Assembly (NCBI GenBank): GCA_021735655.1
Contig: JAIPGM010000001.1
Location: 161,728-225,727 of the forward strand
From: Candidatus Omnitrophota bacterium
GTDB lineage: Bacteria > Omnitrophota > Gorgyraeia > Duberdicusellales > 4484-171
Direction of reading: 5' to 3'
Length of the DNA stretch: 64,000 nt
Shown piece after piece: positions 2-63,561 of this stretch (its first letter is position 1; every line of letters begins with the position of its first letter). The notes beneath the pieces were generated by a model. That model was given only the letters and a program-made list of their open reading frames with translations, was not told the DNA's origin and searched no databases. Both the position numbers and the translations under genes were made by a program.

Positions 2-1240
2 CGTCTTGATCCAGTACGGGATAAATTACTCTATGACTATCTTTTAAAGCGTTTAATGAGAGAGGGTATGATTGGAGCAGCAGTTGATTTTGAACAAATG
101 ATGCAGGCTAATTCCCTTTCGGTTAATCTTGCCCAAGTTGCGACTAGAAGATTGTTGGCCGATATAGCTATTTATCACACCGAAGAATTTGCTTTAGGAT
201 TACATCTCCAAACTAAAGGCGTGCCAACCTTTATTATGCCTCCGGCAATTAACCCTTTTAGTTATAAAAATATTCCCCTAGCTGATAATTTTATTCGGGC
301 AACTATGGTTAAATATGGTTTAGATCCCAATAAATTTACGGTTGTTGAAATATCACGTTTCGATCCTTTTAAGGGGCCGCTGGAGGCCATTCAGGCTTTT
401 GTGCGTTTATTTTTGGATAATCCGGGATTGCAGAATGATTTACAATTTGTTTATGCCGGAAATATGGCTGACGATAACCCTAAGGGAAAACGCGATTTTG
501 AAAAGATCGATGCCTATTCTCGCTATCTTAGAAAGAAATTTCCTAAACTTAGGAAAGCCTTGTTTTTGCTCGGTCTTGGGAATAAACCCGGGACAGTAGC
601 CTTAAATTGGGCCCAGAGACGCAGCTTGCGTGTTGGTGGTCAGTTTGCTCGGCCATTTTCTCGGAAAGAGATAGGTCGACTCAACGGTGTTGAGATAAAT
701 GCTCTTGAGGTTAATGCTTTACAGCAACAACTTGAGATGGAAAAAAGAGACGGTAGGTTAGTTATTTCTTTACCGCGTAAAATAGCAATACAGCCTTCAT
801 CAAAAGAAGGTTTTGGCTTAGTGGCGGCTGAGGCTACCGGAAAAGGTACTCTGGTTATCGCTTCTTTGATCGGTGGCCTTAAAGCGCAATTAAAGGATTT
901 GCTTGCGCAAGCTTCTTGGTTGGGCATTAACTATACGCCGGAGGAAATTAGTCAATCTTTAGAGGTGTATGACTCAATGGATTCTGATCAGCATAGAGGT
1001 GTTGTTTTCGATGTGGCTTATTTGGAAAGAATTAATTTATATCAACGGCTTAATCAACGAGAATTCGTTTTGGGTTTAGCTACCTCTCTGCGGGTGGCTT
1101 ACGAACTGGCTCATAAAAATCCAGATGTCTATCGAGAGCTCGGTTTAGCTGCACGTTGCCAGACTTTAGATAAGTTTATTACTCTAGCTAATGTTGAGAA
1201 CCGCTTAGCCGCCGCTTCCTTGATTGTTGATAATCAGCAG
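2..1240 (+). other. Polyprotein unit S0: C-terminal half of a GT4 glycosyltransferase, trehalose synthase (TreT)-like
   Basis: EISRFDPFKGPLEAIQAF, NMADDNPKGKRDFEKI and SSKEGFGLVAAEATGKGTLVIASLIGGLKAQL match the remembered TreT/GT4 C-terminal Rossmann motifs (SRFDPWKG; EGFGLxxxEAxxKGxPVI). The N-terminal GT domain is not in the window. Confidence 0.6.
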
Positions 1241-4200
1241 CCCTTGGATAATGGTAAGCCAGAAGTTCCGATGCCTTCTTCTTATTGGATCGATCATAGC
1301 CTTCTTCATGAAATTGATAATGTTTGGGCTAACTTGGATTGGATTAATCCCGGGCCAAGTTTAAGCATAGCTCGCCAGATTGAGAAAAATTTTAAGCCAG
1401 CACAAGAGCCAGGTTTTTTAAGAGTTAGCATAGATGCCTTTGGTCCGCTTAACGGATTTAAAAATCAAGTATTAGCTGAACATGAGCAGTATTTTGATTC
1501 CGAGGTTTATAAAGATTATCGAGCTGGCATAATTCATGCTATTGATAATCTTTGGCAACACGGCGGAAAGTACGGTGCCTTATTTTTGATGGCTCAGCTT
1601 AGAGGACGAACCGTACGCTTTACTTATTGTTTGCTAGATCGCGGTGATGGTTTTATTAATGACGATTACAACCATGTTCGTTTAGAAGAAGCCGTTCAGG
1701 CACATAGAACATTTAAACGAGCCGGCAAGAATGGTATGGGCCTTTATTATATGGCGATAAAGCCGGATTATTTTTCAATCACCGCGGTTAATTGCTACCG
1801 GGCTGTTGCCACAACTCAAGCTCACTATTGGGAAACTGGCTACACTAAAGAATGGCCGTTTTGCCCGCAACAAACTCCGGTTAACAAGGGGGTGCGGGTG
1901 ATTTCGGTAAAGGATGTAGCTTTAGGCCTTTTGCCATTTTCGAATATGCAGCCGTTAGATAATGGCCGTCGAACTGATGAAGAACGCCTGGATTTTATCG
2001 GATTTTTAGTTGAGTCATATTTAGAGGCTTTATTTACTTTCCGGAGGTTAAGAGCAAATAACAGCGAAGTAGCCGAGATGTATCTGCCAGCAATTTCCGA
2101 AACTGCCGTTAGAAAGAAACGAGCCAAATGGGTAGTTACAGCTGTTGAGGTTGCCCGTGAGGCATTTCAGGTTATGGCTCGAGCTGATTTTCGACATTCA
2201 TCCGGCTTAACCATTCGTTCAATCTTTGATTCAATTTTGGCTTCTGGCGGTCGCAACCAAGCAGCTAATGATCTAGGAGTCGATCGCGCTAGCCTTACTC
2301 GCTGGATGCATAGCTTACCTAATGATTTATTAGGTGGGTTAGATCCAGAATTAGCAGTCTTCAAACAAAGAATCCTTGATTTATTTGATGAAAACAATAC
2401 TCGACCCCTAGACAACGGTAAAGAAAATATAGATTTATTAGCGGTTACAGCAGTTAAAAGAGAGGACACCTCACCGTGGCTGGCGGGCCCTCTCTCTGCT
2501 GTAGCCCCTATATATATAGGTAAACAGCAGGGGCCGCTAGATAACGGCCGAGCGCCTTTGGATAATGGCCAGCCAGCTAACTTTTGGAAAGTTTTGCATT
2601 CTGGTATATACGTACTTCCGATATATTACACTCGACTTTTCGATACAGCTAAAGACGCAGGAATTGGAAAATATACTTATGTAGTGCCGTTTGTTCGTGA
2701 TCATGTATTGTCTTTAGGCCATCAAGCGATACTTTTCTTACCGTTTTCTTTGCAGTTACCTTGGTCGCAATCTCCTTATGATGCGGCTGATTGGCGTTAT
2801 TTTAATACTGATTATATTGATTGGGGGCTTATCCCTGAGGCTCAACCTTTTCTAGGTAAGTTCGATTATTACGGTCATTCACAGCGTAGCGTTGATTTTC
2901 GATCAATCCGGCCACGTGAATTATTAATCGGAAAGGCCGCCTTTCTTAATCTCAGAGACAATCGAGAAAAACAATACCGCCAGCGCTGGGAAGATTTTCA
3001 AAGGTTTGTTAACAATCAGCGAAGTAGAGGGCCGGAGTGGGATTTAACCCATCTTGGTCATTACCGGGCCTTCAATGATGTCTTGGGTAATGATTTTGGT
3101 TTATGGGTTCATGAAGGGATGTATTGCCCTAGGCAGGATACCCATCCAGATGTTATCAAGTACAACGTTGCTGAGCAAAATAAAAATATGCAATATTCAG
3201 ATTTAATTCAGTTCTATCAATACCAGCAATGGATTGCTTTCGGCCAGGCTCGCGATATGCTTGAAGGTTTGCGCAATATTGGTGTCTTTTATCTTTTAGA
3301 TAATCCTTTCTTTCATGCTAAGGGTGGTATTAATTTTTGGACCCAAAACATCATTTCAAGAGATAGGCATTATGAATTTTTTGATCGTTCACCCGGTGTA
3401 CCCGGAATCGGTAGTGACCCTGAACAATTCTGGACATCTTTGGTTCCTTGGAATTGGCCTAGATTAAGAGAGTTGGACTATGAACCTTTCTTAAACCCTT
3501 ATCATTATTATTTAGGTGATTTGGGCGCTCAGGGAGTTCGGGCTGATGCTATTCATTTTCTTTTTCCTTGGATTCATTGGGAACGCGGTCCTTATGCTGC
3601 TAATTTTCAGAGTTGGGAGTCCCCGGGTCATGATTTACTTTGGAGATTAGACAACGTTTTTAATTCTTATGGAGCTTTCAGGCTTGGCGAGTTACTTGGC
3701 CCGGGTTTTGAAAGTATTCAGAGAATGGGCTTTGATAATTATCACTGGCATTTCTATCGGATGTGGAAATGGGGTGGCGGACCTGATTTAAATCCGGGTT
3801 GGAACGCAAAAGCTTTAGAGTTACATGATGGGCCGCGGGTTTGTGTTGACCATGAACACGGGTTCTATCCTTATGCCGGACACGCTTATTTACGGCATCG
3901 TTTGGAGGGCCCGGGCGGTCTAAAAGAATTAAATAGTCGTTTCCTTTTAGGCAGTTCGGATATAGCTATGGTTTATGCCGGAGATGAAGTAGCCGACAAC
4001 TGGTGGATAAATAACCCTAATCTGCCTGAGTGGATGATGGATCGTAATTGGGCCACTCGAATGCCAATGCAGGGCGATCAGGATTTTGATCTTTCAGTAG
4101 CCTTGTCCATGCTTGAGCATCGCCGTTGGATTGGCCAGCGTCTAATTGAGCGGACGCCTTTGGATAATGGTAAGCAAGAGTTTAATCATCTTAGCTTGGT

Positions 4201-25200: not shown

Positions 25201-28200
25201 TCAAGTTCTGGATGTAGATGTTCTTGGCCATGACTATTGTCATATCGATAGAGTTGGCTTTGACGCTTGGCCTGATATGGCTATCGATCACTTTGAAATG
25301 GCCCGAATTGTTGATGAGCAGGATCAGCTATTACACACTTTTTGGTACGGTGTTTATTCAGAACGGATTCCCAATAGAGGTAGAGCTAGAATTTTAGGGG
25401 CGACTTTTACTGCCGGAGGTCACCTGCGACTTGGTAACGAAGATGTTTATCATGATGCGAACTTTCCCGAAGCTAGAGTAAATGTTACTTATATTGACGG
25501 AGAAGTAAGTGAGATATTAATTTATCAGGATGCTCAAGGCAACTCAGTAAATTATCATTATACTAAAAAGCAGATAGATAATTATAAGCGCAGAGTGCAA
25601 TATTATAATCTGCGCGGTCATGTATTCGAGCATGCTTTAAGAGTTGCCTTACCTTTTTTAAGCGACTGCCCTTTTGATTATCAAAAGCGCATTGGTGGTG
25701 AAGTTGATGGGTGGGTTGATGGTGAAGCTGAACCAAAGCCAGCTGATTCCAGATCACTTAAACGTCCAGATTTTACTAGTCCTTTTAGCTGGGCAATGAG
25801 TGAAGGGGTATTGTGCTATATTGATGCTAAATTCAATCTTAGAATTAAGTTTTTAATAGAATATCTAGAGGCAATTAAAGAGACTTTAAGAACTGATTAT
25901 TTTACTGATTGTGATGCCCCAGTTGAAACACATTTTGTAGGAAGAGTTATATTTGAGATAGTTTATTTAGGCAGAGTAAGTGAAGCTAATGTAGAGGCAA
26001 AGTTAGCTGGTCATCAGAGAAATTTTTCAGCTACCAATTCTGAGATGCTCACCTTGAAACCAGTTAGCTTTCTTGATGAGTACGGAGATAGGCTTAAGAC
26101 CGCTGGTCAGGATACTTTAGTAAGGTTTCTGAGACATCTGAGAGTTTTTCATTATAAGCCAGGTCGCAAGAAAGCCTTAGATAGCTATTTAGCCCAATTA
26201 GAACAGGATAAAATTCCCGAGATAGCCGATGAGCAGACTAATCTTTTTTCAAGGCCGCTGGATAATGGCCGAGAAAGATTATTGGTTAGTAGCGGTAATA
26301 GTCATTTAAAAAGTTTTCGTGAGGCGAAAGGTTTATTAGCAAAATTAAAATGTACAGACATTTTTGGGGTTGTCATGGGTTATCGCGCTGCCTTAGCTGA
26401 TAGAGATAATTATCAGAGAGTATTTGCTCGTGATTCTGTTTGGATGGGGTTAGCCGAAATGCTTTCCGGCTGTAAAGGTAGTTTAGCTTTAACATTAAGC
26501 GTATTAAAACATCATCAATGTCGGTACGGACAGAGACGCGGGGCTATTCCGAGTAACATTTCAAGGTATCATCGGGTAAGTTATGGGACAACTAGCCCAA
26601 GAATTGATCCAACCCTTCTTTATATTGTTAGTTCTGGCCAATATTATCGGTCCAGACCAGCCTATTTTCAAAAACAGTTTCTCGTTGAAAATTTATCGCC
26701 GCTACAAAAAGCTATAGCATATTTAGAAAGACAATGGGTTATGGATAACGGTTTATTGTTTATTCCGATTGCCGGAGATTGGGCTGATGAATATTTTCAA
26801 CAAGGCCTTGTTTTGTATGATGAAGTTTTATGGTATATGGCACTTTCAGAGTATGCCTACCTTTTAGCTGAAGATAATAATTCTAATTCAGAAGTTTATC
26901 AAGCTAAGGCTGCTTGGGTAAAGAATATAGTCAGATCCAAATTTTGGATAAATAAAAATCCCGGTCAAGGCAATTTGGGGCATTTCCGTCATTTTTTCAA
27001 TCAATTACAAAGCCCGAATCAGGCAGCGACATTTGGCTGTCCCTATGATAGCTTTGATGCTTTTGGTAATATTTTGGCAATTCTTTCCGGCGTGGCTACA
27101 GAGGAGCAAACTGCTCAGATAATTAAATATATTGATGTAATTTCAGAAAATAATCAGCCATTACTGGTGCCGGCACATTATCCGGCAGAAGAAGTTGAAC
27201 ATTTTGTTCACACAGGTGCTCCGTATCGGTATCAATTTAAGAATAATCCCGGGTGTTATCATAATGCTGGTTTATGGTCATGGTATACAGGTTTATATGT
27301 TGCGGCATTAGTGAAAGCCGGCCGATTAGACCGGGCGGCTAAATTTTTAGAAGGGGTACAGCTAGCCAATGAAGCTAAGGACTCAAATGGCCGGGGGTAT
27401 CATGAGTACCATACTAATATTCCCGGTCAATTGAGTAGGCCGGGTGGAGTTAGCAATTTAGGTGTCAGCGCTGCTGGTTATATAATAGCTCACCAAGCAT
27501 TTTTTAAAAATAAGATTGTTTTTGGTCAGAATCATCCTTTAGACAACGGCCGTCAGATGCCTGATTATTTTTCTCCGGTTGGAGACGTCAATGTAACTCT
27601 TAATAGTTCTTCAGAAAAAGCCCCCCTTGATAACGGAAGAAATTATTCCAGTTCGCCAATATTTCAAGAGACAACCTTTACCTATTGGTTAAGAGTGAGT
27701 TTATATTTATTAAGATTTTTGCTTAGTGCACCTTATTATTTTATTATTACTTTAGTTGTATCAAGAATGATGAAAGGAAAAAACATTTTATTTGTATCTT
27801 ACCGTATTAATGAATTTGCTTTAGATGGAGTATCTTTAGAAATAAAAGAGTGGCGAAATCTTTTATATCGATTGGGCGCACATATTTTTCTATTTTCTGG
27901 TCATAGCAAAATTGTTCAGGATGGAAGTATCACCGGTCAGGCTCCGGATTGCATTGAGAGTGATTTTCTTGCTGAACAGGCAACAAAAATAAGAGAGAAG
28001 ATTGAAAGAGAGGGAAAGCTAGATGCTGAAGATTTTGAATTAATTCATAGAGCAAAAGAGATAATTAAACGCAATCTGCGTAAGTGTATCTTGGAAAATA
28101 ATATTCACTACATTGTTTCGGAAAATGTATTTTGTCTACCGGGAAACCTCGCTCTTGCCGAGGCACTTATAGAACTTGCCGAAGAGTTTCCTCGGTTAGG

Positions 28201-29311
28201 TTTTATTTCTCATAACCATGATTTTTGGTGGGAACGATCCCGCTATTCAAAACATATTCGCACTGATTGTGCTAGTTACTTAGATAACCTTCATAATCGA
28301 ATCCGTCGCCAAACAGTCGTTGTTATAAATCAAGGCCAGTTGAGAAATATTTCAGATCATCTCGATGCTGGTTTGCACAAAGTATTTATTGTTCCGAACG
28401 TAAGAGATTTTTCCCGAAAGCCAAAAGTAGATCATTCGTGCGTAGCTAGGCTTAAGACTTATCTAAGACAGAGGCACGGGATTACTGAAGATTGCCATGT
28501 ATTTTTAGCACCGGTAAGGCCCGTTTATCGAAAGAATTTAGAACATGCTATTGATGGTTTGGCTAAAGTTCAGGAAGAAATGGGGGAACCTTTGCTATTT
28601 GTTGTAAGCCATAGCGCCCAAGATTCTCAACCAGGTTACGTTGACCAACTAAGAGCTCGGGCTGAAAGCCAGGGTCTTAAATTTGTTTATCTGGGTGAAG
28701 AAGTGCTTTCCGGTCAGTTTAGCTTAGAGACGATATATGCTTTTTGTGATATGGTCATTGTTACTTCTACCTGGGAGGGTTGGGGTAATGCCACGCTTGA
28801 AGCATTTTATTACCAGAGACCAGTTATTGTCTGGCCGTACCAGGCTTACCAAACCGAGATAAAGCCTGTAGGGCTAAGTTGCTTAGAGGCGCCTGAATTT
28901 TCTTCTGAGGTCATTACTTCGATAATTACGGTTTTACGATTTACTTGGTTGAGAAAAAGAATTGCTAGAGGGAATTATTGGTTAGCTAAATTACATTTTT
29001 CTTACCGAAGGCTTACAAGAGTATTTTTTAAAGTATTTAATAATTTAGAATCTGCCGAAACCAAAACACAACAATTTCCGCTTGATAATGGTAAAAAGGG
29101 TGAGGGTTCTAAACCAAAACAAAAATTATCTCCTTTCGAGAGATTTAAACAAGACATAGACGAGCTTCTTAGCAATCCCCAAATCAGGCAAGTAAGCGTA
29201 GACAGTATTCTTCAATTTTACGGCCCACGGCTGAAACGCGATGTTGTTGAGGCCCATCTTAAAAGTAAGGGTTTCCAACGCCGGGATAGAGACACCTATT
29301 TAATTCCCTGA
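2..29311 (+). CDS. Giant multi-enzyme polyprotein-like ORF (5' end open at window edge; at least 9,769 codons)
   Basis: Frame 2 has no stop codon from nt 2 to TGA at 29309-29311. The ORF track starts at the first ATG (nt 56), but codons 2-55 (RLDPVRDKLLYDYLLKRL) are also open and read as part of the same GT4-like domain. All overlapping other-frame and antisense ORFs are under 130 aa. It contains at least 15 recognisable, mutually unrelated folds separated by a recurring PLDNG peptide. Confidence 0.9.
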   Translation, partial: RLDPVRDKLLYDYLLKRLMREGMIGAAVDFEQMMQANSLSVNLAQVATRRLLADIAIYHTEEFALGLHLQTKGVPTFIMPPAINPFSYKNIPLADNFIRATMVKYGLDPNKFTVVEISRFDPFKGPLEAIQAFVRLFLDNPGLQNDLQFVYAGNMADDNPKGKRDFEKIDAYSRYLRKKFPKLRKALFLLGLGNKPGTVALNWAQRRSLRVGGQFARPFSRKEIGRLNGVEINALEVNALQQQLEMEKRDGRLVISLPRKIAIQPSSKEGFGLVAAEATGKGTLVIASLIGGLKAQLKDLLAQASWLGINYTPEEISQSLEVYDSMDSDQHRGVVFDVAYLERINLYQRLNQREFVLGLATSLRVAYELAHKNPDVYRELGLAARCQTLDKFITLANVENRLAAASLIVDNQQPLDNGKPEVPMPSSYWIDHSLLHEIDNVWANLDWINPGPSLSIARQIEKNFKPAQEPGFLRVSIDAFGPLNGFKNQVLAEHEQYFDSEVYKDYRAGIIHAIDNLWQHGGKYGALFLMAQLRGRTVRFTYCLLDRGDGFINDDYNHVRLEEAVQAHRTFKRAGKNGMGLYYMAIKPDYFSITAVNCYRAVATTQAHYWETGYTKEWPFCPQQTPVNKGVRVISVKDVALGLLPFSNMQPLDNGRRTDEERLDFIGFLVESYLEALFTFRRLRANNSEVAEMYLPAISETAVRKKRAKWVVTAVEVAREAFQVMARADFRHSSGLTIRSIFDSILASGGRNQAANDLGVDRASLTRWMHSLPNDLLGGLDPELAVFKQRILDLFDENNTRPLDNGKENIDLLAVTAVKREDTSPWLAGPLSAVAPIYIGKQQGPLDNGRAPLDNGQPANFWKVLHSGIYVLPIYYTRLFDTAKDAGIGKYTYVVPFVRDHVLSLGHQAILFLPFSLQLPWSQSPYDAADWRYFNTDYIDWGLIPEAQPFLGKFDYYGHSQRSVDFRSIRPRELLIGKAAFLNLRDNREKQYRQRWEDFQRFVNNQRSRGPEWDLTHLGHYRAFNDVLGNDFGLWVHEGMYCPRQDTHPDVIKYNVAEQNKNMQYSDLIQFYQYQQWIAFGQARDMLEGLRNIGVFYLLDNPFFHAKGGINFWTQNIISRDRHYEFFDRSPGVPGIGSDPEQFWTSLVPWNWPRLRELDYEPFLNPYHYYLGDLGAQGVRADAIHFLFPWIHWERGPYAANFQSWESPGHDLLWRLDNVFNSYGAFRLGELLGPGFESIQRMGFDNYHWHFYRMWKWGGGPDLNPGWNAKALELHDGPRVCVDHEHGFYPYAGHAYLRHRLEGPGGLKELNSRFLLGSSDIAMVYAGDEVADNWWINNPNLPEWMMDRNWATRMPMQGDQDFDLSVALSMLEHRRWIGQRLIERTPLDNGKQEFNHLSLVESNGEQKLYSASSLVISQRGVYLSPTSTGPKEVISQIQLSPSGIKVSGELTSQEPKSRPIDYRHSYEINFYFEKLAKAYGRGLFVGINDVQLWIRLSQALGDFLWGVLRLETGIFDIPDRKLRRLVIQEALYHEVMTSALGLSVANRGLREFFATILSVSHFCYLSEIAKDQDKLNYRLGILQALDRGLIQMSDSLAGLYRQIAESGSLPDPATLVKAVITHINEEERYHSDRRSFRDYVRTKSENFSGRFTVGNLTQAVLNDSALQLELQAEWTNFLGFLANSQTVARAWQPKIKFIRGPRGIKVINPQGVPDQGGYQFQLQSFRAIFDCLGLPNPLSEPAALNRYLGFLPEPPEYDSQAVNLPELNISQILPGVAVVYPDSLEANQLAVRRALYELMNFRVWKLAVEIRGALGTEDALFFDQHCQVHSFVDVAQGWMLDLNPQSPIVYDDVLPGGQAYEAPEQPDLAEHERLHQKAQAVFSKVWAITMNRFLRDQRMFGGEAVGLVGFTTTVPILYRYIQQCKHSEPEYSLQRPLNNGLGILQYLQSLRRSQETEAARRVSLDQGFGQLKSLLVEKLQSIDSTTLSIANLDQALNEDSQAIFLTLEQLREARFQAESFRNGQVSMCDLASLALAAASEEVFGQRHLVKIVVGYYRVDEQLYKKHYWVVIDETLLIDITYGQFDPDHLNRILVATVDDYLRLKLEYGTELEPLDNGKQTQVQPTCLEARWWNNYYPGVIEGTGIRPTARSLSFEQIEEVVCLLLLDQAGQELVAKIINRELPDVYPSVRRTALKAMVRFDHYELFGPKIITCLQDVVRDGAEMYQPFALYALAQTPAFNGPVANRFAEEALKGTLKPSPRKPTAAEKTALQEGLEPNTQAIRFKSRLASVEYLKGVLAQRQGWARVCLGTVPHFSRVSNRALINKFAAQVLAADKKLSSSSAQRRQKDKSEFWGLEQAEFIHPATGHEALVELANDPELSSSDESPLVDQILHQMEELGYVPILRPSKFQLTEPAQGQEAEIDREALWTKDAVLMISTKFGIVPVSSALANLKGGEFVSGYGKRGSFMIIPAAALNSKQQLSDIIPEVPIHVFPSGFLVINDQGVIRLRGTSHIDTSLGAIPIMARPESGQLMLIDPLLHQVARTHPRYRDHYQSVVQEDGVRFIDVPEPERHLNPANFGILPGGEIFMPYAPRTKQVLIEAGVNEQYIIMLPSEFNKYLPTLHVLAGSIGCLVAQAFHPVEKREPLDNGHEKEKRQTRSRAIDISTKGAEDLLFTELQTGSLVSLVVDGLEYWLSLDQGDEVWFDLYRPKDDIIGYIYFRNDAMPARKIANFGGPSIVPAYRGRHLSRVLYFVYFRYLWRNNYIPEEDCLTIDDRLALKLYHEAKKFYYDQDHTFTPFQIIPRAEKTKAAKPLDNGHDMVQKQLFELIKRKSDSIKTFLEPFEACLAYNGVLALLIRGRPDLSVKFLLKKIGSAEHWFLLAETVLGNHQFVVDISPQGKMFTDIEVLVVDCAEAGKINYLYEDYTVVSDQETENLLRALARQKGMNEFLHLVHQLPEEKWIGRLPDSDQSMPLDNGKLINEGSESSFSDITNSMRVTFVMPMYNEQQRLLPKTSDNPYGEDALRVKVSQFRELEQENPNFQWRLIAVDDGTPGFASAKCLEQILAEIDAQNREFNIYSKVFVVVITEQEKKLLGSRKGGAVLRGFQEALSHGWADYIGITDTDISSNVNQTKDLILALRKGAGVAIGSRRQSGAEARGIPLLGRVSTVIYNWCIRLILWPLFSIRDTQRGFKLFQKEVIVRILPYARDHHLSFDTELLLLSRLAGYQIAEVPIVWIDSAEATTLVMSKDAPAMLWRVIKQARHIFNNPFRGQKPLDNGRKINLSVRMLRKARLITVHVDAGDCPAALASAIDKLVSGLGQIQVSRSNIVLNTAHQNSPMDIVSSVGSLSTEQITTLFPEAVFLIAGGNVFKCLRNLVESLAVGSVNKRTVRIFVLYDYTYGQGSNYSPEQLAGEYYDYFSDMLSVYSDRFNLAVFYLAQNQFEQEIYGKNLSGPNLSLAIIEKEALASQVPLDNGRSLGELTAEGYNLKFLARSSDLRMTAHCRRDVSFNSYLYDYRLDPEHTYRQAQLVPLVARSVKENAFRKSSDWQYLPQHLKDLYDSGKVLMIASRAQAKAKPSRYSALVISGRTEAFSGRMGILLYDNRPIIVSILDKPFFIEAKGIGVAQGGFSSVHRRSGHRYEVTGAQRWQASLKEFTSLELERKISRFFGTADTPRALAAIVYKYPQMDQLISDSLTSQAERREAKEQLGDSLGIMLRLSPSSRRFAYNLEQRHIRMLGEASARLLCSYLPRVHTSPHFENLLEWAEGSEFSWSDYGDIEVLFAQSSYHWSRSLINARRILMSYLETSISWNVNLLKKLGIIETEAEFISEYLAGFVAYAETLDWITPEAIERLARVRSPKEFVDVMIFEVFALNAYNVFKKQTYETIVEVNQNNLVEELLSSALTIAQRQEKAQLVAELSGHIEAAKQGEAFLGCRIKKSQANQGVLTPVAQPVKNSSWANPFFDQFAYDLWHALLFDDHNLYDYVQAKWDYTVGEEGAFNVAGFYLLDAHYLGLLRSRTSMHNIPEKLYMCSAGYEMTANINKLLTAINRVSLCPQENTLVRSTVRNTLQHAISQRLSKWRLARALILVVESNGEVLAGDDSTYVYIMDSGPGMPIDAVMQGDWRRHSTMFGTDLKGFREYRDVEWILDSWSSKAGGPQRWDGLRGGLVEGALVPDNMPLFGTLFGMRLKHGLESSSKPLDNGRDSRSKGQNLGSLGTANKAPPVKTYNVESPFNRFSLRLLDLILTLSFLPLIILASLPIAIFVKYQIFKHKTGQSVIFKEQRFGYKGKPFIMYKFRTYIGDKDNPKAVLLSLRCLGLDELPQWWNILKGDLSIWGVRPKLQDDPSSDSDFQAHLDQINDLRKPGIISLATADVHAEMEHVSFSAEHRDRQIAFDLYEAEYWSFFLAFKIVVLNIFAQFKEAARIVFRNKILVIVAVHIPQAEQPKAGPILNILEYLSQRFPSKYYSVFVGFPDSGNPNLNLDLAIPQGLTIGLGEGDEYNIVNSQGLKLKFSWQFEGPDDLSQRTLKIGRHKLLMPLCAESSLPVFSGAKKKIPHKAIFIPFIAFRPCIVTCMNDLIFLNLPIIGLDTANGIFLFVPGSTQIDIVGTNKLLAVAINHSGRVMGSSFKDLDQVVPLDNGRQTISHFRSGEGQSRTGPTSRNFPLDNGGRNNEAIENNRFSFANRLGKVLVATVIGGISLGLLYLFGGLDWYTNIKNSIPLGAVIFWPGAFLDMVTGVLIWLISDIVGQYLNQGRSIRYRQSFKVGAWGVFQGLATHILYNLVELLPVVPLPLAQAMFRTIFTLFGGLTINIFYTVVVARARKASKAEGYSGLKERHKAYDVIFSKFIVAPIKTYFIVNLLPPATRVISEQAWEYLMKVFDAYLMNRKDSLFSSYILNLLSRKKPLDNGRSGQSDDQITLVSDNLVDSFRNVRQRLVVTVRRAQMSRLDFKPGIVSLQNMSPKVDYFCLSSISERQEDIQAYRQVPLVQDGASFGESYSEKYLIAQEPDTLVLVEGDEGLIASFDYSLCGCLVIRARNLFGMAHLSPFIDFSDEEMEIENDRIYYKYLSVLDYFKLQGYKDVQIFLSLNELLQGFKTLKARLWSAGDSDATNRQRVVDLLGIEARQRGIAVVDRRLRQKSEVLDVLGFPRKMISRQWLNRGTKPESFEIIFIETRDELPVAINSETQQPEIEYFQFAWPVVIPLDNGRRKLPNDDWIWVNGESLQFVGRDGLLITGMEGRGKSFLARKIYDSDDRWKVVSCGATHVCIRNELAERALLGRRLSENNLLYSRLSGTIPVELSLDVVVRLNWVMALDDLYREILGGLLADAGQRESLGLKIIDMSDLDVTRQWPKVLKFINASIVKPETYDKGNSLFQVPLDNGRRAQVEQEREFLIQTIINVFSQGEGLCLEPAQIEAAIAVDTSFDEYRIARNLPIVIGLKGNIYENCPLASKPLLLVFTGRGSITKPELIFNAYTQQGLVREASRLSRSMETKNAIWEIPYHGKKTAFILEDKNNWIALAAVYGPEDIYQQGLLICKGGDRITRLGTEISQAAGEADEEAIFSDYSRALVVARLLGFSILDGPDMMRRVNRRMSAMIAAAKETVADINEFAKAYPGYEAVDTHHILKPTTSNPVEEGGFPHTEWMVTSRGVVQGTVTALRWLRQVLDVGENRYPEEVVRFVKNLNIFGSPMSYIVQGFGDVGSGITKLFLTIFKIFGFQARGFNNRYFAIYRREGLPKPFLVEAREIVEVSPDALDLGRLLAMKSFDDQLQGAVVWIANPINPKTKEPVFGPADVDRVNQALAERGVTAIWGDQTVVNELIYQKATVLFLAATANVISELSQVERLQVKIISEGANNAVKPELREPLRKANVFYIPGELLNGGGIYASKEDIRHNHTDGSELIRQHRQYYYIHVTDEIDTLALHRMISFLEIWAESAGNFSFDLTVHVEKVAGRIFEAADNLVRTNNTRLRKFTQIDQKRTFDHQAGRPTLPWRHSLYEIAIEMAPMGILYHLRDVGRHLSLLNRFKVAIKEDGQIDNYHICRLRFALFELTKLGYYLKSNQRRRLIGLLPGIITDEKCDGLLRKDAMFCLAMAIRWQEEESCKSEVDRARKLYLGILQNPLESAQLHTWAQHCLYRIFGENYFRRISADFDRLNGVNLPKPLDNGRDSSVGITSEPLRILAELISNSYRTKALVEFLQPFLDCESVNYLQEEIAKHCQLPAWGVVSSSHYLDEGYFYYGLKSGIDRCLERGVMVENDGNRLYVTKDSEDTVKYSGLDETQENQWGIFIFPSEYFNQAINCGYAEAGLRLSHNRLGITTYPYFKSSLSLAPARFLIIDRSKADEHRHLEGQPKLKDKLQALTEAGLKVLWLPDSSGPFFDPDFQYAFGELLFSNDIPETNRFLFYPSADTQDLTKIIWWVLQSLRMSSIKNRLLHNMELARQFKKIGPFDNGRADFTTADEQIGNLFAEAVITGDNVLIETHWDAVAAKRGGSLNILEHAGLRITRSLALGIVPRAGEWPDRVETDQIILSSSRYGWIDSERDIEHLLSGFDQARLLNSFNLGHYYQGCHYRSFLSWLAVLKSSHFPAVIFHFIGELINSWGIKPAAKSDFPVLASRRDIFSFVSVPYVSDIEKLDLPVAVFFDGKLSSLRRGDSRKQPTLILAYWQALNGFIGFKEQIARETAEFQNTPLDNGRKEHDISDSTVIQWPLNVIVKDMRGLSKGEILAVVKTGKIFWGREIVGAIFSDRNIVFGKVVDDKFIVFDDWLIERIPGGLLEGLRRSILFLPYLGSILRNKTSSINKPLDNGKKYNYRQVLEMVDCFDSARLEAHLFRALGRVETEAVSIAGDIIRAARKFERITKAVKSLYRKTYGKLPNFTLAFDPSGQGMYGAYQEDDTAGFFDHIGVAPEDVLLEVGSGDGSISDFMAHMFGIKATGIEVWEPYYHYAVFLRDEAVRRRFIPEGKVDFLNNNLVDVDFSKYSLVYYAALGTRRKSELAARLLGVREKSRILIRGSPDELVEGIIASHPDFSLRKLEIEVNENLTGIKARVYTRETITSYQPVLDVPLDNGRKNNPQMVRARLAAFEKSIEGIVPRADPLYDHLIRFYQYPLNNLGEPDEETYVRNNTKEQERELLRFWAGHFGLPKNYGGHVTIGIGQAEYYAMYVASNRFPKAIFYISNQVDSLLYDTLQVLGIDQGRIKLIRSLENGEIDYGDLKRKIRENSSWPAVVCLTAGRFLGAVDDLGKVEGILGSLGLKHKHIHCSMSPLSIGQSFLEDAAKIDFQHGLDSMSLPLYHFVRCPMPGVIVLTRRKYLQNIACSQKAAEYVNSNDTTNSGSRSGHAPLYLWFATKVIGTKGFKAQAERAREVCVSIKALFDRYGYPCRFTAQKNTIIFEPPFYELRQKWGLLSHGQWSCFEIVPYLTPVEIAEFVSDLLGDHSQAVAAPVETVFPERIVYEPSPEVLDVLDQLEARIQILMERFLGFPANIAGNETSFAALSSLFKYTLRKKDVEGFRHEALKFFTDLYGLRYEDFYCGITAGGTWGNRVGLLVGRENFPGGILYYSQDSHYSIDKVARSLNMEVRKVASLSNGQIDYDELAEAIEENRGRPVIVNLNIGTTMKGAIDNPQRVIEILREQDVTDYYIHCDAALFGMILPFLEAAPKIDLANGVHSIAISGHKFLGLPMPSGIFMVRKNCARDRLITISDRLLTAQTGHVILYFWQAVASRGYEGCREEAMACVDNAQYLYYRLQERGLPSEVNPFSNITMFSRPSGSLIDTWQLAPCGDRVHVVAMQHVTRDKIDAFVQELTRDMQQGQIELASSMQPLDNGRRRKASLVPEVGLDELVEKHLGNLKLISSEYGKSVGMLSTILRRPDNESLQQRAEELRKIGPGRLALAADLGEFGVDSLKIGQKYGVGRRTAASWLVNNGFGDRVNSARYSRSRTLRRQKIAQEYEPIARLLDGEGNLLQTFYTHISWKEVSAYPFAVLDELEIQATEVLSYGGKQWGQFKGHAGHRARITLEWGYPIEVAMSSKRGVDQGSYRAMQLRTYQSTLFDREGELLDTAFFVFGYDEDLCRGTTKVVNYQLTKAGRISIFGDEQIQLIKHKQAWANLVAVDGKVVRATILDREGGNEVITYNFSRVYDENNRVIYTFTGGLEFKQSSVPPALLKSLARGRIEGIYLKGGRGNLTIGGRTWVVLSDYKNYPCRAYIEEGLVVRVEVLGEEGEAVFTKHSHRLYDREDNFVEVFYDSISPERLNQVGLCRSSPLIVTPSGELCLSGNRYTFENEGGSKAIVWIEPGVKFTRNRKPDGKAVRIDFYDQYMHYKHTRYAVRIYEDEGVLIDTFFGPGYAEKLKIFGDVIGFAQLDTLGSLNIGYTTHTFTKYGDPRHFVRFSLHQAQVLDVDVLGHDYCHIDRVGFDAWPDMAIDHFEMARIVDEQDQLLHTFWYGVYSERIPNRGRARILGATFTAGGHLRLGNEDVYHDANFPEARVNVTYIDGEVSEILIYQDAQGNSVNYHYTKKQIDNYKRRVQYYNLRGHVFEHALRVALPFLSDCPFDYQKRIGGEVDGWVDGEAEPKPADSRSLKRPDFTSPFSWAMSEGVLCYIDAKFNLRIKFLIEYLEAIKETLRTDYFTDCDAPVETHFVGRVIFEIVYLGRVSEANVEAKLAGHQRNFSATNSEMLTLKPVSFLDEYGDRLKTAGQDTLVRFLRHLRVFHYKPGRKKALDSYLAQLEQDKIPEIADEQTNLFSRPLDNGRERLLVSSGNSHLKSFREAKGLLAKLKCTDIFGVVMGYRAALADRDNYQRVFARDSVWMGLAEMLSGCKGSLALTLSVLKHHQCRYGQRRGAIPSNISRYHRVSYGTTSPRIDPTLLYIVSSGQYYRSRPAYFQKQFLVENLSPLQKAIAYLERQWVMDNGLLFIPIAGDWADEYFQQGLVLYDEVLWYMALSEYAYLLAEDNNSNSEVYQAKAAWVKNIVRSKFWINKNPGQGNLGHFRHFFNQLQSPNQAATFGCPYDSFDAFGNILAILSGVATEEQTAQIIKYIDVISENNQPLLVPAHYPAEEVEHFVHTGAPYRYQFKNNPGCYHNAGLWSWYTGLYVAALVKAGRLDRAAKFLEGVQLANEAKDSNGRGYHEYHTNIPGQLSRPGGVSNLGVSAAGYIIAHQAFFKNKIVFGQNHPLDNGRQMPDYFSPVGDVNVTLNSSSEKAPLDNGRNYSSSPIFQETTFTYWLRVSLYLLRFLLSAPYYFIITLVVSRMMKGKNILFVSYRINEFALDGVSLEIKEWRNLLYRLGAHIFLFSGHSKIVQDGSITGQAPDCIESDFLAEQATKIREKIEREGKLDAEDFELIHRAKEIIKRNLRKCILENNIHYIVSENVFCLPGNLALAEALIELAEEFPRLGFISHNHDFWWERSRYSKHIRTDCASYLDNLHNRIRRQTVVVINQGQLRNISDHLDAGLHKVFIVPNVRDFSRKPKVDHSCVARLKTYLRQRHGITEDCHVFLAPVRPVYRKNLEHAIDGLAKVQEEMGEPLLFVVSHSAQDSQPGYVDQLRARAESQGLKFVYLGEEVLSGQFSLETIYAFCDMVIVTSTWEGWGNATLEAFYYQRPVIVWPYQAYQTEIKPVGLSCLEAPEFSSEVITSIITVLRFTWLRKRIARGNYWLAKLHFSYRRLTRVFFKVFNNLESAETKTQQFPLDNGKKGEGSKPKQKLSPFERFKQDIDELLSNPQIRQVSVDSILQFYGPRLKRDVVEAHLKSKGFQRRDRDTYLIP
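1256..1951 (+). other. Polyprotein unit S1 (232 aa): GHKL/Bergerat ATPase-like (anti-sigma-factor kinase-like)
   Basis: IIHAIDNLWQHGGKYG resembles an N-box and LLDRGDGF resembles a DxGxG G1 box. Confidence 0.35.
1967..2404 (+). other. Polyprotein unit S2 (146 aa): small helix-turn-helix protein
   Basis: GGRNQAANDLGVDRASLTRWMHSL resembles the Fis/NtrC-type C-terminal HTH. Confidence 0.4.
2420..2533 (+). other. Polyprotein unit S3: 38-aa inter-junction peptide, followed by a tandem junction (PLDNG-RA-PLDNG, 2534-2569)
   Basis: KENIDLLAVTAVKREDTSPWLAGPLSAVAPIYIGKQQG lies between sites 2405-2419 and 2534-2548. Confidence 0.6.
2570..4156 (+). other. Polyprotein unit S4 (529 aa): GH77 4-alpha-glucanotransferase (amylomaltase)-like
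   Basis: Four stretches follow the remembered MalQ order. GIGKYTYVVPFVRDHVLSLGHQAILFLPF...SQSPYDAADWRYFNTDYI matches GIGdfg...LP...SPY..S.f..Np. YQQWIAFGQARDMLEGLRNIGVFYLLDNPF matches fQW.f..Qw...GI.ligDlp. GVRADAIHFLF matches lRiDH. LGELLGPG and LHDGP follow. Confidence 0.55.
4172..5806 (+). other. Polyprotein unit S5 (545 aa): unknown function
   Basis: Bounded by site 4157-4171 and the degenerate PLNNG site 5807-5821. I recognise no family motif. Confidence 0.3.
5822..6337 (+). other. Polyprotein unit S6 (172 aa): transglutaminase/papain-like Cys-His-Asp module (candidate cysteine peptidase)
   Basis: GQVSMCDLASLALAAA (Cys codon 6083-6085), VVGYY, HYWVVIDE (His 6197-6199) and LLIDIT (Asp 6233-6235). 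This matches the remembered transglutaminase-like core G.C..fA ... GY ... HaW.ev ... W...D.t. Confidence 0.4.
6353..7939 (+). other. Polyprotein unit S7 (529 aa): HEAT-like N-terminal region plus guanidino-modifying-enzyme fold (amidinotransferase/arginine deiminase/DDAH-like)
   Basis: The N-terminal part (PSVRRTALKAMVRF...) is helical-repeat-like. The C-terminal part has GTSHIDT, NPANFGILPGGEIFMP and a terminal HVLAGSIGCLVAQ that resembles the catalytic Cys motif of this superfamily. Confidence 0.4.
7955..8440 (+). other. Polyprotein unit S8 (162 aa): GNAT acetyltransferase-like
   Basis: IGYIYFRND...IVPAYRGRHLSRVLYFVYF resembles GNAT motif A (V.P.yRG.G....L); the size is typical. Confidence 0.35.
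8456..8920 (+). other. Polyprotein unit S9 (155 aa): second Cys-His-Asp papain/transglutaminase-like module
   Basis: FEACLAYNGVLALL (Cys 8540-8542), AEHWFLLAE (His 8633-8635) and FVVDIS (Asp 8684-8686). The order and spacing match S6. Confidence 0.35.
8936..9826 (+). other. Polyprotein unit S10 (297 aa): GT2 polyprenyl-phosphate glycosyltransferase (DPM1/ALG5/GtrB-like)
   Basis: Carries VTFVMPMYNE, LIAVDDGTPG, RKGGAVLRGF, ITDTDIS, RDTQRGFKLF and SFDTELLLL, the classic GT-A GT2 motif series. An internal Met (MRVTFVMP) sits where a free-standing gene would start. Confidence 0.8.
9842..10417 (+). other. Polyprotein unit S11 (192 aa): unknown function
   Basis: Bounded by junction sites 9827-9841 and 10418-10432; no motif recognised. 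Confidence 0.3.
10433..12604 (+). other. Polyprotein unit S12 (724 aa): unknown, C-terminal GHKL-like ATPase motif
   Basis: The C-terminal VVESNGEVLAGDDSTYVYIMDSGPGMP resembles a D.G.G ATP-lid region. The rest is unrecognised. Confidence 0.25.
12620..13915 (+). other. Polyprotein unit S13 (432 aa): bacterial sugar transferase (phosphoglycosyl transferase, WbaP/PglC-type) plus unknown C-terminal domain
   Basis: A hydrophobic re-entrant helix (LLDLILTLSFLPLIILASLPIAIFV) is followed by FKEQRFGYKGKPFIMYKFRT and LRCLGLDELPQWWNILKGDLSIWGVRP. This is the hallmark KFRTM...DELPQ..NVL.G.MS.VGPRP series. Confidence 0.8.
13931..13999 (+). other. Polyprotein unit S14: 23-aa inter-junction peptide
   Basis: RQTISHFRSGEGQSRTGPTSRNF lies between sites 13916-13930 and 14000-14014. 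Confidence 0.6.
14015..14722 (+). other. Polyprotein unit S15 (236 aa): polytopic integral membrane protein (possibly Mpv17/PMP22-like)
   Basis: At least four long hydrophobic stretches: VLVATVIGGISLGLLYLFGGL, GAVIFWPGAFLDMVTGVLIWLI, AWGVFQGLATHILYNLVELL and IFTLFGGLTINIFYTVVVA. Confidence 0.6.
14738..15616 (+). other. Polyprotein unit S16 (293 aa): unknown, with a CheD-like Cys/His motif
   Basis: DYSLCGCLVIRARNLFGMAHLSPF (about 15080-15150) resembles the CheD deamidase motif LGSCV.v...D....gG.aH.mLP. Confidence 0.25.
15632..16141 (+). other. Polyprotein unit S17 (170 aa): P-loop NTPase, HPr kinase C-terminal-like
   Basis: LQFVGRDGLLITGMEGRGKSFLARKI contains a Walker A (GxxGxGKS) in an HprK-like context. 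Confidence 0.4.
16157..18496 (+). other. Polyprotein unit S18 (780 aa): Glu/Leu/Phe/Val dehydrogenase-like core flanked by unknown and helical-repeat regions
   Basis: LLICKGGDRI is a K-G-G catalytic-Lys-like motif and TSRGVVQGT follows it. YIVQGFGDVGSGITKLF matches QGFGNVG, ISEGANNAVKPE matches ANgP.t, and GGGIYASKEDIRHN is also present. Confidence 0.5.
18512..20419 (+). other. Polyprotein units S19 (281 aa, 18512-19354), S20 (237 aa, 19370-20080), S21 (108 aa, 20096-20419): unknown functions
   Basis: Delimited by junction sites 18497-18511, 19355-19369 (PFDNG), 20081-20095 and 20420-20434. No family motif recognised. Confidence 0.3.
20435..21205 (+). other. Polyprotein unit S22 (257 aa): class I SAM-dependent methyltransferase
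   Basis: Motif I VLLEVGSGDGSISDF, then ATGIE, and an acidic post-II region (FLNNNLVDVDFSKYSLVYY). Confidence 0.65.
21221..23479 (+). other. Polyprotein unit S23 (753 aa): tandem group II PLP decarboxylase (histidine decarboxylase-like); N-terminal copy lacks the PLP lysine
   Basis: Copy B (about 22330-23479) has YYSQDSHYSIDK, NIGTTMKGAIDN, HCDAALFG and HSIAISGHKFLGLPMPSGIFMVRK (Lys codon 23042-23044). Copy A (21221 to about 22320) aligns, but has DSMSLPLYHFVRCPMPGVIVLTRR at the equivalent place. Confidence 0.75.
23495..26254 (+). other. Polyprotein unit S24 (920 aa): HTH-like N-terminus, six ~95-100-aa internal repeats, C-terminal PD-(D/E)xK nuclease-like motif
   Basis: The repeats occupy about 23880-25600 and open with RLLDGEGNLLQTFY, TLFDREGELLDTAFF, RVYDENNRVIYTF, RLYDREDNFVEVFY, RIYEDEGVLIDTFF and RIVDEQDQLLHTFW. 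The C-terminal motif is LKRPDF...17 aa...YIDAKF. The N-terminal YGVGRRTAASWLVNNG is HTH-like. Confidence 0.4.
26270..27535 (+). other. Polyprotein unit S25 (422 aa): (alpha/alpha)6-barrel glycoside hydrolase, GH100 neutral invertase / glycogen-debranching GDE_C-like
   Basis: NYQRVFARDSVWMGLA, RGAIPSNIS, LYDEVLWYMAL and YHNAGLWSWYTGLYVAALVKAGRLDRAAKFLE match remembered neutral invertase/GDE_C motifs (dY.qvFiRD; YHNGG.WP...W....A.iK.gR). Confidence 0.6.
27551..27622 (+). other. Polyprotein unit S26: 24-aa inter-junction peptide
   Basis: RQMPDYFSPVGDVNVTLNSSSEKA lies between sites 27536-27550 and 27623-27637. Confidence 0.6.
27638..29077 (+). other. Polyprotein unit S27 (480 aa): membrane-anchored GT4 glycosyltransferase
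   Basis: An N-terminal hydrophobic helix (WLRVSLYLLRFLLSAPYYFIITLVV) is followed by ILFVSYRINEFALDGVSLE and the E-x7-E region TSTWEGWGNATLEAFYYQRPVIV. Confidence 0.7.
29093..29311 (+). other. Polyprotein unit S28: 72-aa C-terminal tail unit and TGA stop
   Basis: KKGEGSKPKQKLSPFERFKQDIDELL...RDTYLIP follows the last junction (29078-29092). Function unknown. Confidence 0.4.
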
Positions 29312-29314
29312 AGG

Positions 29315-29343
29315 TTGCTTTAAGACAAGCCTTAAGGTATAAT
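29315..29343 (+). promoter_or_regulatory. Candidate sigma70-type promoter for the ABC importer operon (TTGCTT-17 nt-TATAAT), implying a near-leaderless transcript
   Basis: TTGCTT at 29315-29320, a 17-nt spacer, and a perfect TATAAT at 29338-29343, 8 nt before the ATG at 29352. Pattern match only. Confidence 0.3.
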
Positions 29344-29351
29344 TACTTTCA

Positions 29352-63267: not shown

Positions 63268-63561
63268 ATGAAAGCCGACCAGTTAAAGGGCAAGTGCATG
63301 ACTATTAACGAAGAAATTATTTCTTGGCGAGAGATCGACAAAGAGGTAGTATTTCTTAATAAACAGGAAAAAAGTTTTTACGAATTAAACAAAACAGCTG
63401 AGATCATTTGGCGCCAGTTAGCCAAAGGCGGTAAACTGACTCAGGTAATTTCTCAGGTTCAAAAGAAATATAAGAAAGTAGGTAAGCAAGACATAGAAAG
63501 AGATGTAATTGCTTTTATTGCAGATGGAATTAAGAAAAAAATATTTATTGTTAATAAATAA
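63268..63561 (+). CDS. PqqD-family protein (RRE-type peptide-binding chaperone-like)
   Basis: 97 aa. VVFLNKQEKSFYELNKTAEIIWRQL...QDIERDVIAFIADGIKKKIF follows the PqqD pattern. It is TAATG-coupled to the downstream radical SAM gene. Confidence 0.6.
   Translation: MKADQLKGKCMTINEEIISWREIDKEVVFLNKQEKSFYELNKTAEIIWRQLAKGGKLTQVISQVQKKYKKVGKQDIERDVIAFIADGIKKKIFIVNK

Follow-up and report, generated by a model that had tools for sequence, protein, structure and literature searches.

Giant genes are a hallmark of the Omnitrophota (West-Roberts et al. 2023, bioRxiv 10.1101/2023.11.21.568195). A June 2026 preprint (Nielsen & Lui, bioRxiv 10.64898/2026.06.07.730766) defines a class 1 of "multi-enzyme metabolic cluster" giants, in which the commonest domains are methyltransferase, HATPase_c, GNAT, glycosyltransferase (GT) group 1 and other sugar-metabolism enzymes. 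Neither of these preprints reports recurrent junction motifs or cleavage points; where "polyprotein", "motif" or "linker" occurs in them at all, its use there is irrelevant. The 64,000-nucleotide stretch of contig JAIPGM010000001.1 analysed here (the "window") opens with the 3' part of a giant open reading frame (ORF), in which the pentapeptide PLDNG stands at every junction between protein-sized units. Such giants form a known class. The invariant junction peptide, like its counterparts in other lineages, seems not to have been described before, and a literature search found nothing relevant on "PLDNG" or on Omnitrophota in combination with polyproteins. The junction motifs are concrete candidate cleavage points. 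They make the question of processing, that is, whether such a giant acts as one chain or is cut, a testable one.

The window ORF resembles the class 1 giants in its phylum affinity and in being a very long frame tiled by varied enzyme families (GT group 1, methyltransferase, sugar metabolism and possibly HATPase_c and GNAT). It also has some transmembrane helices, much unannotated sequence and little conservation between genomes, and no family dominates it by copy number. The class 1 threshold is 10,000 residues; 9,769 residues are visible here, in a frame that is open at base 2. Unlike the class 1 giants as described, the window ORF has an invariant pentapeptide at every junction.

Viral polyproteins consist of replication and structural proteins that are released at defined protease sites. 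Like the polyproteins of this kind (potyvirus NIa-Pro, picornavirus 3C), the window ORF combines many unrelated proteins in one frame and has a short, lineage-specific junction peptide. Unlike them, it is a cellular DNA gene for metabolic enzymes in which no embedded protease is recognised. Its 28 sites, with five invariant residues save for a single Leu to Phe change, are more uniform than most viral sites.

The MARTX toxins of Vibrio and its relatives are secreted proteins with glycine-rich repeats. They carry their own inositol-hexakisphosphate-activated cysteine protease, which cuts after Leu at loose sites, and hold about 3-5 effectors. The likeness lies in a large bacterial ORF built as a strain-variable mosaic of recombining modules with unrelated functions, for which proteolytic release is known in MARTX. 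Neither the cysteine protease domain (CPD) nor the MARTX repeats were found in Pfam scans of the window, which also lacks tandem DNA repeats. A short, invariant, repeated separator is a feature of multi-copy precursors as well (polyubiquitin, Kex2/furin-processed precursors, nematode polyprotein allergens, and the cyanobactin and cyclotide precursors), and asparaginyl endopeptidases cut Asn-Gly junctions in the cyclotide precursors. These precursors release the same or similar small units, whereas the units of the window ORF are large and mutually unrelated.

The giant open reading frame

A stop-free frame extends over positions 2..29311 of the forward strand and occupies almost half of the window. 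It has 9,770 codons, 9,769 of them sense codons, and ends with a TGA stop at 29309-29311. The frame is open from base 2, and its first ATG, the listed start, is at position 56. Being open at the 5' edge of the window, the gene runs on upstream, and the protein therefore has at least 9,769 residues. The G+C content is between 0.39 and 0.43 along the ORF and between 0.34 and 0.37 at 36-56 kb of the window. The GC skew is positive throughout the window, and nearly all genes are on the forward strand.

An independent Logan assembly (SRR12088349, contig 9023) contains this sequence as well. That contig begins at about window position 2,497, and the 5' end of the gene is missing there too. The idea that the long frame is an artefact (of misassembly, of a decaying array of pseudogenes or of a genetic code that went unrecognised) draws on nothing except the sheer size of the frame and can hardly be entertained. 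It is opposed by the agreement of two independent assemblies and by the length of the frame, since 9,770 stop-free codons at 41% GC are impossible by chance. The downstream genes terminate at standard stops, the window has no tandem DNA repeats, and the PLDNG motif is selected at the peptide level. Scans for tRNAs and Rfam families gave no match. The best explanation is that the window includes the last 29.3 kb, at the 3' end, of a giant gene from an Omnitrophota-type bacterium.

The PLDNG separator

The motif P[LF]DNG occurs 28 times in the giant frame, 27 times as PLDNG and once as PFDNG. The number expected from composition is 0.008, and 500 shuffled sequences averaged 0.01 copies and never had more than 1. 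The motif is confined to this frame, being absent from the other frames and ORFs and from the remaining 34.7 kb of the window. Its P, D, N and G are invariant in all 28 copies, and all except one of the DNG tripeptides of the protein lie within P[LF]DNG. The residue that follows is Arg in 17 copies, Lys in 7, His in 2, and Gln and Gly in one each, giving the junction consensus x-P-L-D-N-G-[RK]; the flanks are otherwise unconstrained and polar.

The codons of the separators vary synonymously. Pro is encoded by all four of its codons, Leu by all six, and Asp and Asn by both of theirs, showing that the constraint is on the peptide and not on the DNA. An origin of the motif at the DNA level, as a recombination site or as the relic of a stop/start overlap, was rejected because the codons vary so freely.

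The separators, each 15 nucleotides long on the forward strand, start at positions 1241, 1952, 2405, 2534, 2555, 4157, 6338, 7940, 8441, 8921, 9827, 10418, 12605, 13916, 14000, 14723, 15617, 16142, 18497, 19355 (the PFDNG copy), 20081, 20420, 21206, 23480, 26255, 27536, 27623 and 29078. They cut the frame into 29 units, called here U0 to U28, and P[LF]DNG is found at 28 of 28 junctions. There are 24 units of 100-920 residues, a tail of 72 residues, spacers of 23, 24 and 38 residues, and one piece of 2 residues that lies between the members of the only tandem pair of separators, PLDNGRAPLDNG. No similarity between units was found within the window. An earlier reading made from the letters alone (the sequence-only reading) had taken the frame for a string of separate proteins, and the protein-sized units do coincide with blocks of homology.

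Relatives of the units

The nearest relatives of U1, U12, U22 and U23 have identities of 36-67% and are all labelled as Candidatus Omnitrophota or Omnitrophica metagenome-assembled genomes (MAGs). U12 is 63% identical to part of P0001, an Omnitrophota MAG protein, in which the homologue also ends with PLDNGR. The junction there reads GKAPLDNGRE, and the next unit of P0001 is absent from the window. U22 is 67% identical to its counterpart in locus L057 (MAG ELA036) and 34-37% identical to those in two other Omnitrophota MAGs; U23 is 59-62% identical to P0030 and P0031, and U1 is 36% identical to a unit in P0033. The labels of these relatives would place the giant ORF, indirectly, in an Omnitrophota-type bacterium.

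The separators delimit evolutionary modules, since homology with the relatives ends within a few residues of them. The aligned regions extend over residues 3-256 of the 257 in U22, 8-750 of the 753 in U23, up to 721 of the 724 in U12 and 3-272 of the 281 in U19. The relatives of U19, P0003 and P0013, are on contigs shorter than 2 kb and are probably fragments.

The surroundings of these modules differ from one relative to the next. P0001, P0031/P0033, L057 and P0002-P0016 each have one or two window units in another context. When U19-U22 were searched exhaustively with HMMER, U22-like methyltransferase units turned up in about 15 proteins of 1.3-6.9 thousand residues, several of them from Omnitrophota MAGs, and no U22-bearing protein among them has a further window unit. 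L057 (positions 2-20767) has 6,922 stop-free codons and is open at both ends; its U22 homologue is situated between an L-serine dehydratase and another methyltransferase. P0023 (6,888 residues) is a distant relative of U22 (25% identity) and has Methyltransf_11 and weak DOT1 matches at some point in its sequence. The fragments P0033 and P0031 come from a single MAG, KKF80, in which a U1-like unit is followed by a P-loop unit, a U23-like unit and then a methyltransferase different from that of the window. The U1-like and U23-like units are there in one ORF, about 260 residues apart. A search for related loci with U12 and P0001 found nothing in genome contigs or metagenome contigs.

Homologues of U23 also exist as ordinary, separator-free genes, P0030 (1,213 residues) and P0029 (923 residues), showing that the units are viable as free proteins. 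The tandem decarboxylase form is common to both, and P0032 (582 residues) appears to be single-copy. The neighbours of P0030 are small hypothetical genes and a MoxR/BatA-D cluster, and those of P0029 are a Hint-domain protein, RluA, RNase T and TamB; a tblastn search of the two loci found no other window unit near them. The Hint protein that precedes P0029 has 1,477 residues, matches Intein_splicing and overlaps P0029 by 23 nucleotides (L061, 1231-5664; L062, 1386-5819).

In this small sample of relatives the order of units is, provisionally, not conserved. The gene content should therefore not be read as a pathway: it is better described as a lineage-specific mosaic of mobile modules than as a fused conserved pathway. 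The mosaic combines glycosyltransferases and hydrolases for glycans and compatible solutes, lipid-linked sugar transferases, amino-acid dehydrogenase and decarboxylase units, a methyltransferase and many units without a known family.

Junctions in other giant proteins

At the KKF80 junctions homologous to those of U23, the sequences 'SSSSPGASADNGVR' and SVSSPSPS are found where the window has PLDNGR. Other junctions of KKF80 read 'CSLDNGDTSSSPV' and 'ASLDNDGGRASSPAS'. In P0023 (locus L002, 89-20755) the motif SSSP[VIAL] occurs 21 times against 0.12 expected, in P0022 the motif G.SLG occurs 11 times against 0.09 expected, and in L057 SSP occurs 16 times against 1.3 expected, in all three with unit-like spacing. 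The Ser codons of L002 are varied, so that the SSSP signal is also one at the peptide level. These three have only the U22-type methyltransferase in common with the window. Such differences in junction motif between lineages would be expected of a site that co-evolves with its reader.

Some junctions are composite, having both xLDNG-like and SSSP-like elements. These are 'SSSSPGASADNGVR', 'CSLDNGDTSSSPV' and 'ASLDNDGGRASSPAS' in KKF80 and 'APLDNGRNYSSSPI' in the window, the last of which, at 27623-27670, bears PLDNG and SSSP together. The PLDNG and SSSP types of separator may descend from one longer junction.

Proposed processing of the giant protein

On balance, and with modest confidence, we favour the reading that the ORF is a mosaic member of the Omnitrophota "multi-enzyme" giant proteins that is probably cut at PLDNG by a sequence-specific protease. 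The motif is at every boundary, is kept in P0001, the one close relative, is swapped for others in other lineages and is absent from the free genes, and it thus looks like the site of a sequence-specific reader. An endopeptidase would be the simplest such reader. The tandem site PLDNGRAPLDNG and the three spacers of 23-38 residues are as in processed polyproteins.

The chain would be made as one polyprotein and cut at or beside PLDNG by an endopeptidase encoded elsewhere, possibly in the upstream 5' part of the gene. Cutting would free soluble enzymes, small spacer peptides and a few units anchored in the membrane (U13, U15 and U27). Speculatively, cleavage between Asn and Gly would give a Gly N-terminus, as at asparaginyl-endopeptidase sites, and cleavage after Gly would expose the Arg or Lys. 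The units would be produced at roughly equal rates, with ribosome drop-off and product stability as the only means of adjusting their levels. The "strictly equimolar synthesis" expected in the sequence-only reading would hold only with complete translation and equal product stability; it is an upper bound and not a property of the sequence.

Several points weigh against the favoured reading. Pfam, NCBIfam and PADLOC revealed no peptidase family in any visible unit or in the roughly 35 kb of downstream genes. PLDNG was found in just one other sequence of the databases searched, so that its conservation rests on two lineages, and most of the long relatives (P0002, P0005-P0016) have no obvious recurrent separator, showing that such punctuation is not universal in the class. 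DNA patterns with two motifs gave 54 matches in JGI metagenome contigs, which is the chance number and in which the multi-motif ones were out-of-frame repeats, and three unrelated matches in viral contigs (IMG/VR). A profile of the 28 junction windows (42 residues), used as a database query, gave no candidates. The synteny test was made on few loci. Asp-Asn-Gly is a strong turn former, and the motif could be a conserved hinge.

In the main rival to cleavage, the product would remain one uncleaved, membrane-anchored mega-protein, a tethered string of enzymes or metabolon, with PLDNG as a hinge, turn or docking motif. The sequence P-x-D-N-G is turn-prone, no protease was found with hidden Markov models (HMMs), and a tandem decarboxylase could dimerise within one chain. 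Hydrophobic helices, which a hydropathy scan of the units places in U13, U15 and U27 only, also agree with a tethered chain, and the published view treats the Omnitrophota giants as single membrane-associated proteins (bioRxiv 10.64898/2026.06.07.730766). Linkers, however, rarely hold five invariant residues over 28 junctions while their flanks vary, and the equivalent junctions of relatives carry unrelated motifs. Moreover, a U23-type unit exists as a free gene, and it is hard to see what spacers of 2-38 residues, with a motif on either side, would contribute to a tether. We consider an uncleaved chain unlikely.

Separation might also occur without a protease, by self-cleavage at Asn-Gly (asparagine-lyase chemistry) or by a 2A-like interruption of translation. 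Asn-Gly is invariant and preceded by Asp, no protease was found, and Asn-mediated cleavage is known in inteins, in FlhB/YscU and in some viral capsids. The known Asn-lyases, however, need a folded catalytic context, and the units that flank the junctions here are all different; free Asn-Gly mainly deamidates instead of cleaving, and the SSSP and G.SLG motifs of the other lineages lack such chemistry. The junctions do not have the 2A consensus D(V/I)ExNPGP (there is no NPGP), and 2A is not known on bacterial ribosomes. Protease-free separation is thus highly improbable.

Cleavage by a sequence-specific endopeptidase, our preferred reading, can be extended to the other giants. In some Omnitrophota, dozens of ordinary proteins of the cytoplasm and the membrane might be made as genuine cellular polyproteins, with lineage-specific peptide punctuation that a co-evolving protease reads. 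Peptide marks would then replace stop and start signals: PLDNG here, SSSP[VIL] or G.SLG elsewhere, and a composite LDNG...SSSP in a third lineage. This extension is finely poised, with doubt slightly the heavier side. If true, it would amount to a virus-like mode of expression, with at least 25 proteins per ORF, in a free-standing bacterial genome, and modules would be shuffled between polyproteins. Cleavage of the window protein would in itself be a rare cellular use of polyprotein expression for metabolic enzymes. It would affect gene calling, one "gene" corresponding to about 25 proteins, and the functional annotation of Omnitrophota, and it would bear on the control of protein stoichiometry in tiny, host-dependent cells.

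Structure of the units

The folds proposed from the letters were checked against Pfam at its cut-offs and against NCBIfam, and further with PADLOC and a sequence search of the PDB. Seven distinct families lie above the Pfam cut-off in eight units (Glycos_transf_1 occurs twice), and one further match is borderline. A recognisable family is therefore present in 8-9 of the 24 units of at least 100 residues, and about two thirds of the units have none. The single ORF and the enzyme families of the sequence-only reading are real; its regulatory folds were not confirmed by sequence methods. All unit coordinates given below are on the forward strand.

Six units belong to glycan-related families, each as called by eye. 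U0 (2..1240; 413 residues, the N-terminus being lost at the window edge) is a glycosyltransferase of family 4 (GT4) and is closest to TreT. It scores 39.5 bits with Pfam Glycos_transf_1 and 73 bits with its best NCBIfam model, TreT_Thcocales, far under the cut-off of the latter. The second GT4, U27 (27638..29077; 480 residues), has an N-terminal hydrophobic helix and is closest to mannosylglucosylglycerate synthase (Glycos_transf_1, 38 bits; NCBIfam NF041101, 149.6 bits against a cut-off of 640). U5 (2570..4156; 529 residues), presumably the unit S4 of the sequence-only reading, is a divergent relative of the 4-alpha-glucanotransferases of glycoside hydrolase family 77 (GH77), with 43 bits for Pfam Glyco_hydro_77 and 25-34 bits for the NCBIfam malQ models. 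U25 (26270..27535; 422 residues) is an (alpha/alpha)6-barrel glycoside hydrolase of GH100/GDE-like type (Glyco_hydro_100, 51 bits; GH94 and GDE_C weak). U10 (8936..9826; 297 residues) is a family 2 glycosyltransferase (GT2), closest to the dolichyl/polyprenyl-phosphate hexose transferases (Pfam Glycos_transf_2, 26.1 bits; NCBIfam DPhHxTase, 30 bits, and AglJ, 24.5 bits). U13 (12620..13915; 432 residues), in which residues 42-60 of the unit are a hydrophobic helix, is a polyprenyl-phosphate phosphoglycosyl transferase (Pfam Bac_transf, 96.6 bits; NCBIfam EPS_sugtrans, 90 bits).

The dehydrogenase and decarboxylase calls also held. U18 (16157..18496; 780 residues) contains a Glu/Leu/Phe/Val-dehydrogenase NAD(P)-binding domain (Pfam ELFV_dehydrog, 46.9 bits; NCBIfam ScyB and GdhA, 25-29 bits). 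U23 (21221..23479; 753 residues) is a tandem-duplicated group-II pyridoxal phosphate (PLP) decarboxylase of the histidine-decarboxylase family, scoring 90 bits with Pfam Pyridoxal_deC and 505 bits, in two stretches, with NCBIfam PRK02769. In a self-alignment, SLPLYHF in copy 1 corresponds to the PLP-lysine motif SGHKF in copy 2. Only one half of U23 looks catalytic, copy 1 being without the PLP-binding lysine. The methyltransferase call for U22 (20435..21205; 257 residues; S-adenosylmethionine (SAM)-methyltransferase-like) is borderline, with 22.4 bits for DOT1 against a cut-off of 23 and weak matches to NCBIfam methyltransferases.

The candidate regulatory and small-molecule units are without a family. 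U1 (1256..1951; 232 residues) has, by eye, an N-box, DxGxG and GxxGxG, which are compatible with a GHKL ATPase, and GHKL was also proposed for U12 (10433..12604; 724 residues). Helix-turn-helix-like stretches can be seen in U2 (1967..2404; 146 residues), for which the sole match in the PDB sequence search was 2jn6 with E=0.8, and at the N-terminus of U24 (23495..26254; 920 residues). U7 (6353..7939; 529 residues) has SHIDT and a C-terminal GSIGC, compatible with a guanidino-modifying (amidinotransferase/deiminase) fold, and U8 (7955..8440; 162 residues) had been called GNAT-like. U17 (15632..16141; 170 residues), called HprK-like, has a P-loop (Walker A) only; its matches to AAA_16 (17.5 bits) and Sigma54_activat (16 bits) are under the cut-offs, and RtcR gives 17 bits. 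A relationship of U17 to the P-loop unit of P0033 was considered and rejected, as the two have only the Walker A motif in common and their score is within the shuffled range. The Pfam, NCBIfam, PADLOC and PDB sequence searches neither confirmed nor contradicted GHKL in U1 and U12, helix-turn-helix in U2 and U24, HprK in U17, amidinotransferase in U7 or GNAT in U8.

In U24 a repeat of about 100 residues, recognisable by YD.EG.L[LI].TF, occurs at least five times (unit residues 133, 227, 410, 507 and 607). The copies recall the YD-type repeats, but their spacing is far longer and there is no family match.

Among the other units without a family, U6 (4172..6337; 722 residues) has a C-terminal Cys...His...Asp pattern by eye only, and U9 (8456..8920; 155 residues) has by eye a Cys-His-Asp spacing like that of a putative transglutaminase or papain-like core. 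These patterns make U9 and U6 candidates, by eye, for the protease; the similarity of U9 to U6 is not significant. U11 (9842..10417; 192 residues) matches DHFR_1 with 17 bits, under the cut-off. U15 (14015..14722; 236 residues) is a membrane unit with three hydrophobic helices. U16 (14738..15616; 293 residues), U19 (18512..19354; 281 residues) and the C-terminal tail U28 (29093..29308; 72 residues) have no distinguishing match. U20 and U21 (237 and 108 residues, together with their separator at 19370..20419) are orphans, having no relative among 1.84 billion representative proteins in the exhaustive HMMER search. The small pieces are U3, a spacer of 38 residues, and U4, the two residues RA between the tandem separators (2420..2554 with the separator between U3 and U4), U14 (13931..13999; 23 residues flanked by two separators) and U26 (27551..27622; 24 residues).

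For the unannotated units, nothing usable came from Pfam at E values up to 10, from NCBIfam, from PADLOC or from PDB sequence searches. The AlphaFold2 models are poor: U9, as a single sequence, reached a predicted local distance difference test (pLDDT) score of 36.7, and U1, aligned with P0033, one of 39.5. Values under 40 arise because deep alignments cannot be built. Pfam scans of all units found no carrier, condensation, adenylation or ketosynthase domains of nonribosomal peptide or polyketide synthases.

The sequence-only reading saw in these units a conventional operon or island of one coherent physiology (storage glycan, compatible solutes, amines, envelope glycosylation and its regulators), fused into one frame. 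The enzyme families are as it called them. Alpha-glucoside solutes or glucans could be the substrates of the GT4s, the GH77 unit and the GH100/GDE-like hydrolase alike. Polyprenyl phosphate is a substrate common to the GT2 and the phosphoglycosyl transferase, and the methyltransferase U22 adjoins the decarboxylase U23. The functional classes are nevertheless interleaved, the glycan units (U0, U5, U10, U13, U25 and U27) being interspersed with the amine units (U18, U22, U23 and possibly U7), and two thirds of the units are unannotated, two being orphans. The neighbours of U1, U12, U22 and U23 are not conserved in any relative. No syntenic unfused counterpart was found in the small sample, P0029 and P0030 having unrelated neighbours; this is an outcome that the sequence-only reading had itself named as refuting it. 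Except for U23 and U13 the enzyme matches are very divergent, and all but that of U23 are far under the equivalog thresholds, so that trehalose, sucrose and alpha-glucan as substrates are suggestions only. A fused operon is improbable, and in practice the list of domains should not be read as a pathway.

Downstream genes

The gene for an opp-type substrate-binding protein starts at 29352, about 40 nucleotides past the giant ORF. No terminator-like structure was found in the gap (29312-29351) between the ORF and the opp-type importer genes. This short gap without a terminator suggests that the giant ORF and the genes of the Opp-type ABC importer are probably co-transcribed.

The region 35259-64000 is a dense cluster of genes, among them those for an amine oxidase, two ABC-2 exporter pairs, seven radical-SAM proteins, a methyltransferase, three GT4s, an alpha/beta hydrolase, a phosphodiesterase and PqqD (63268-63561). 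Two of the radical-SAM proteins are fusions, one of three radical-SAM and SPASM modules (1,284 residues, 43160-47014) and one of two B12-dependent radical-SAM modules (1,052 residues, 50920-54078); PLDNG is absent from both. The cluster looks like one for the modification of lipids or of peptides of the ribosomally synthesised and post-translationally modified (RiPP) type. That the spacer peptides of the giant ORF might be its substrates is pure speculation. In a further ORF of 1,155 residues, at 37346-40813, an ABC ATPase domain is confined to the first 160 residues, and the following 1,000 or so are unannotated.

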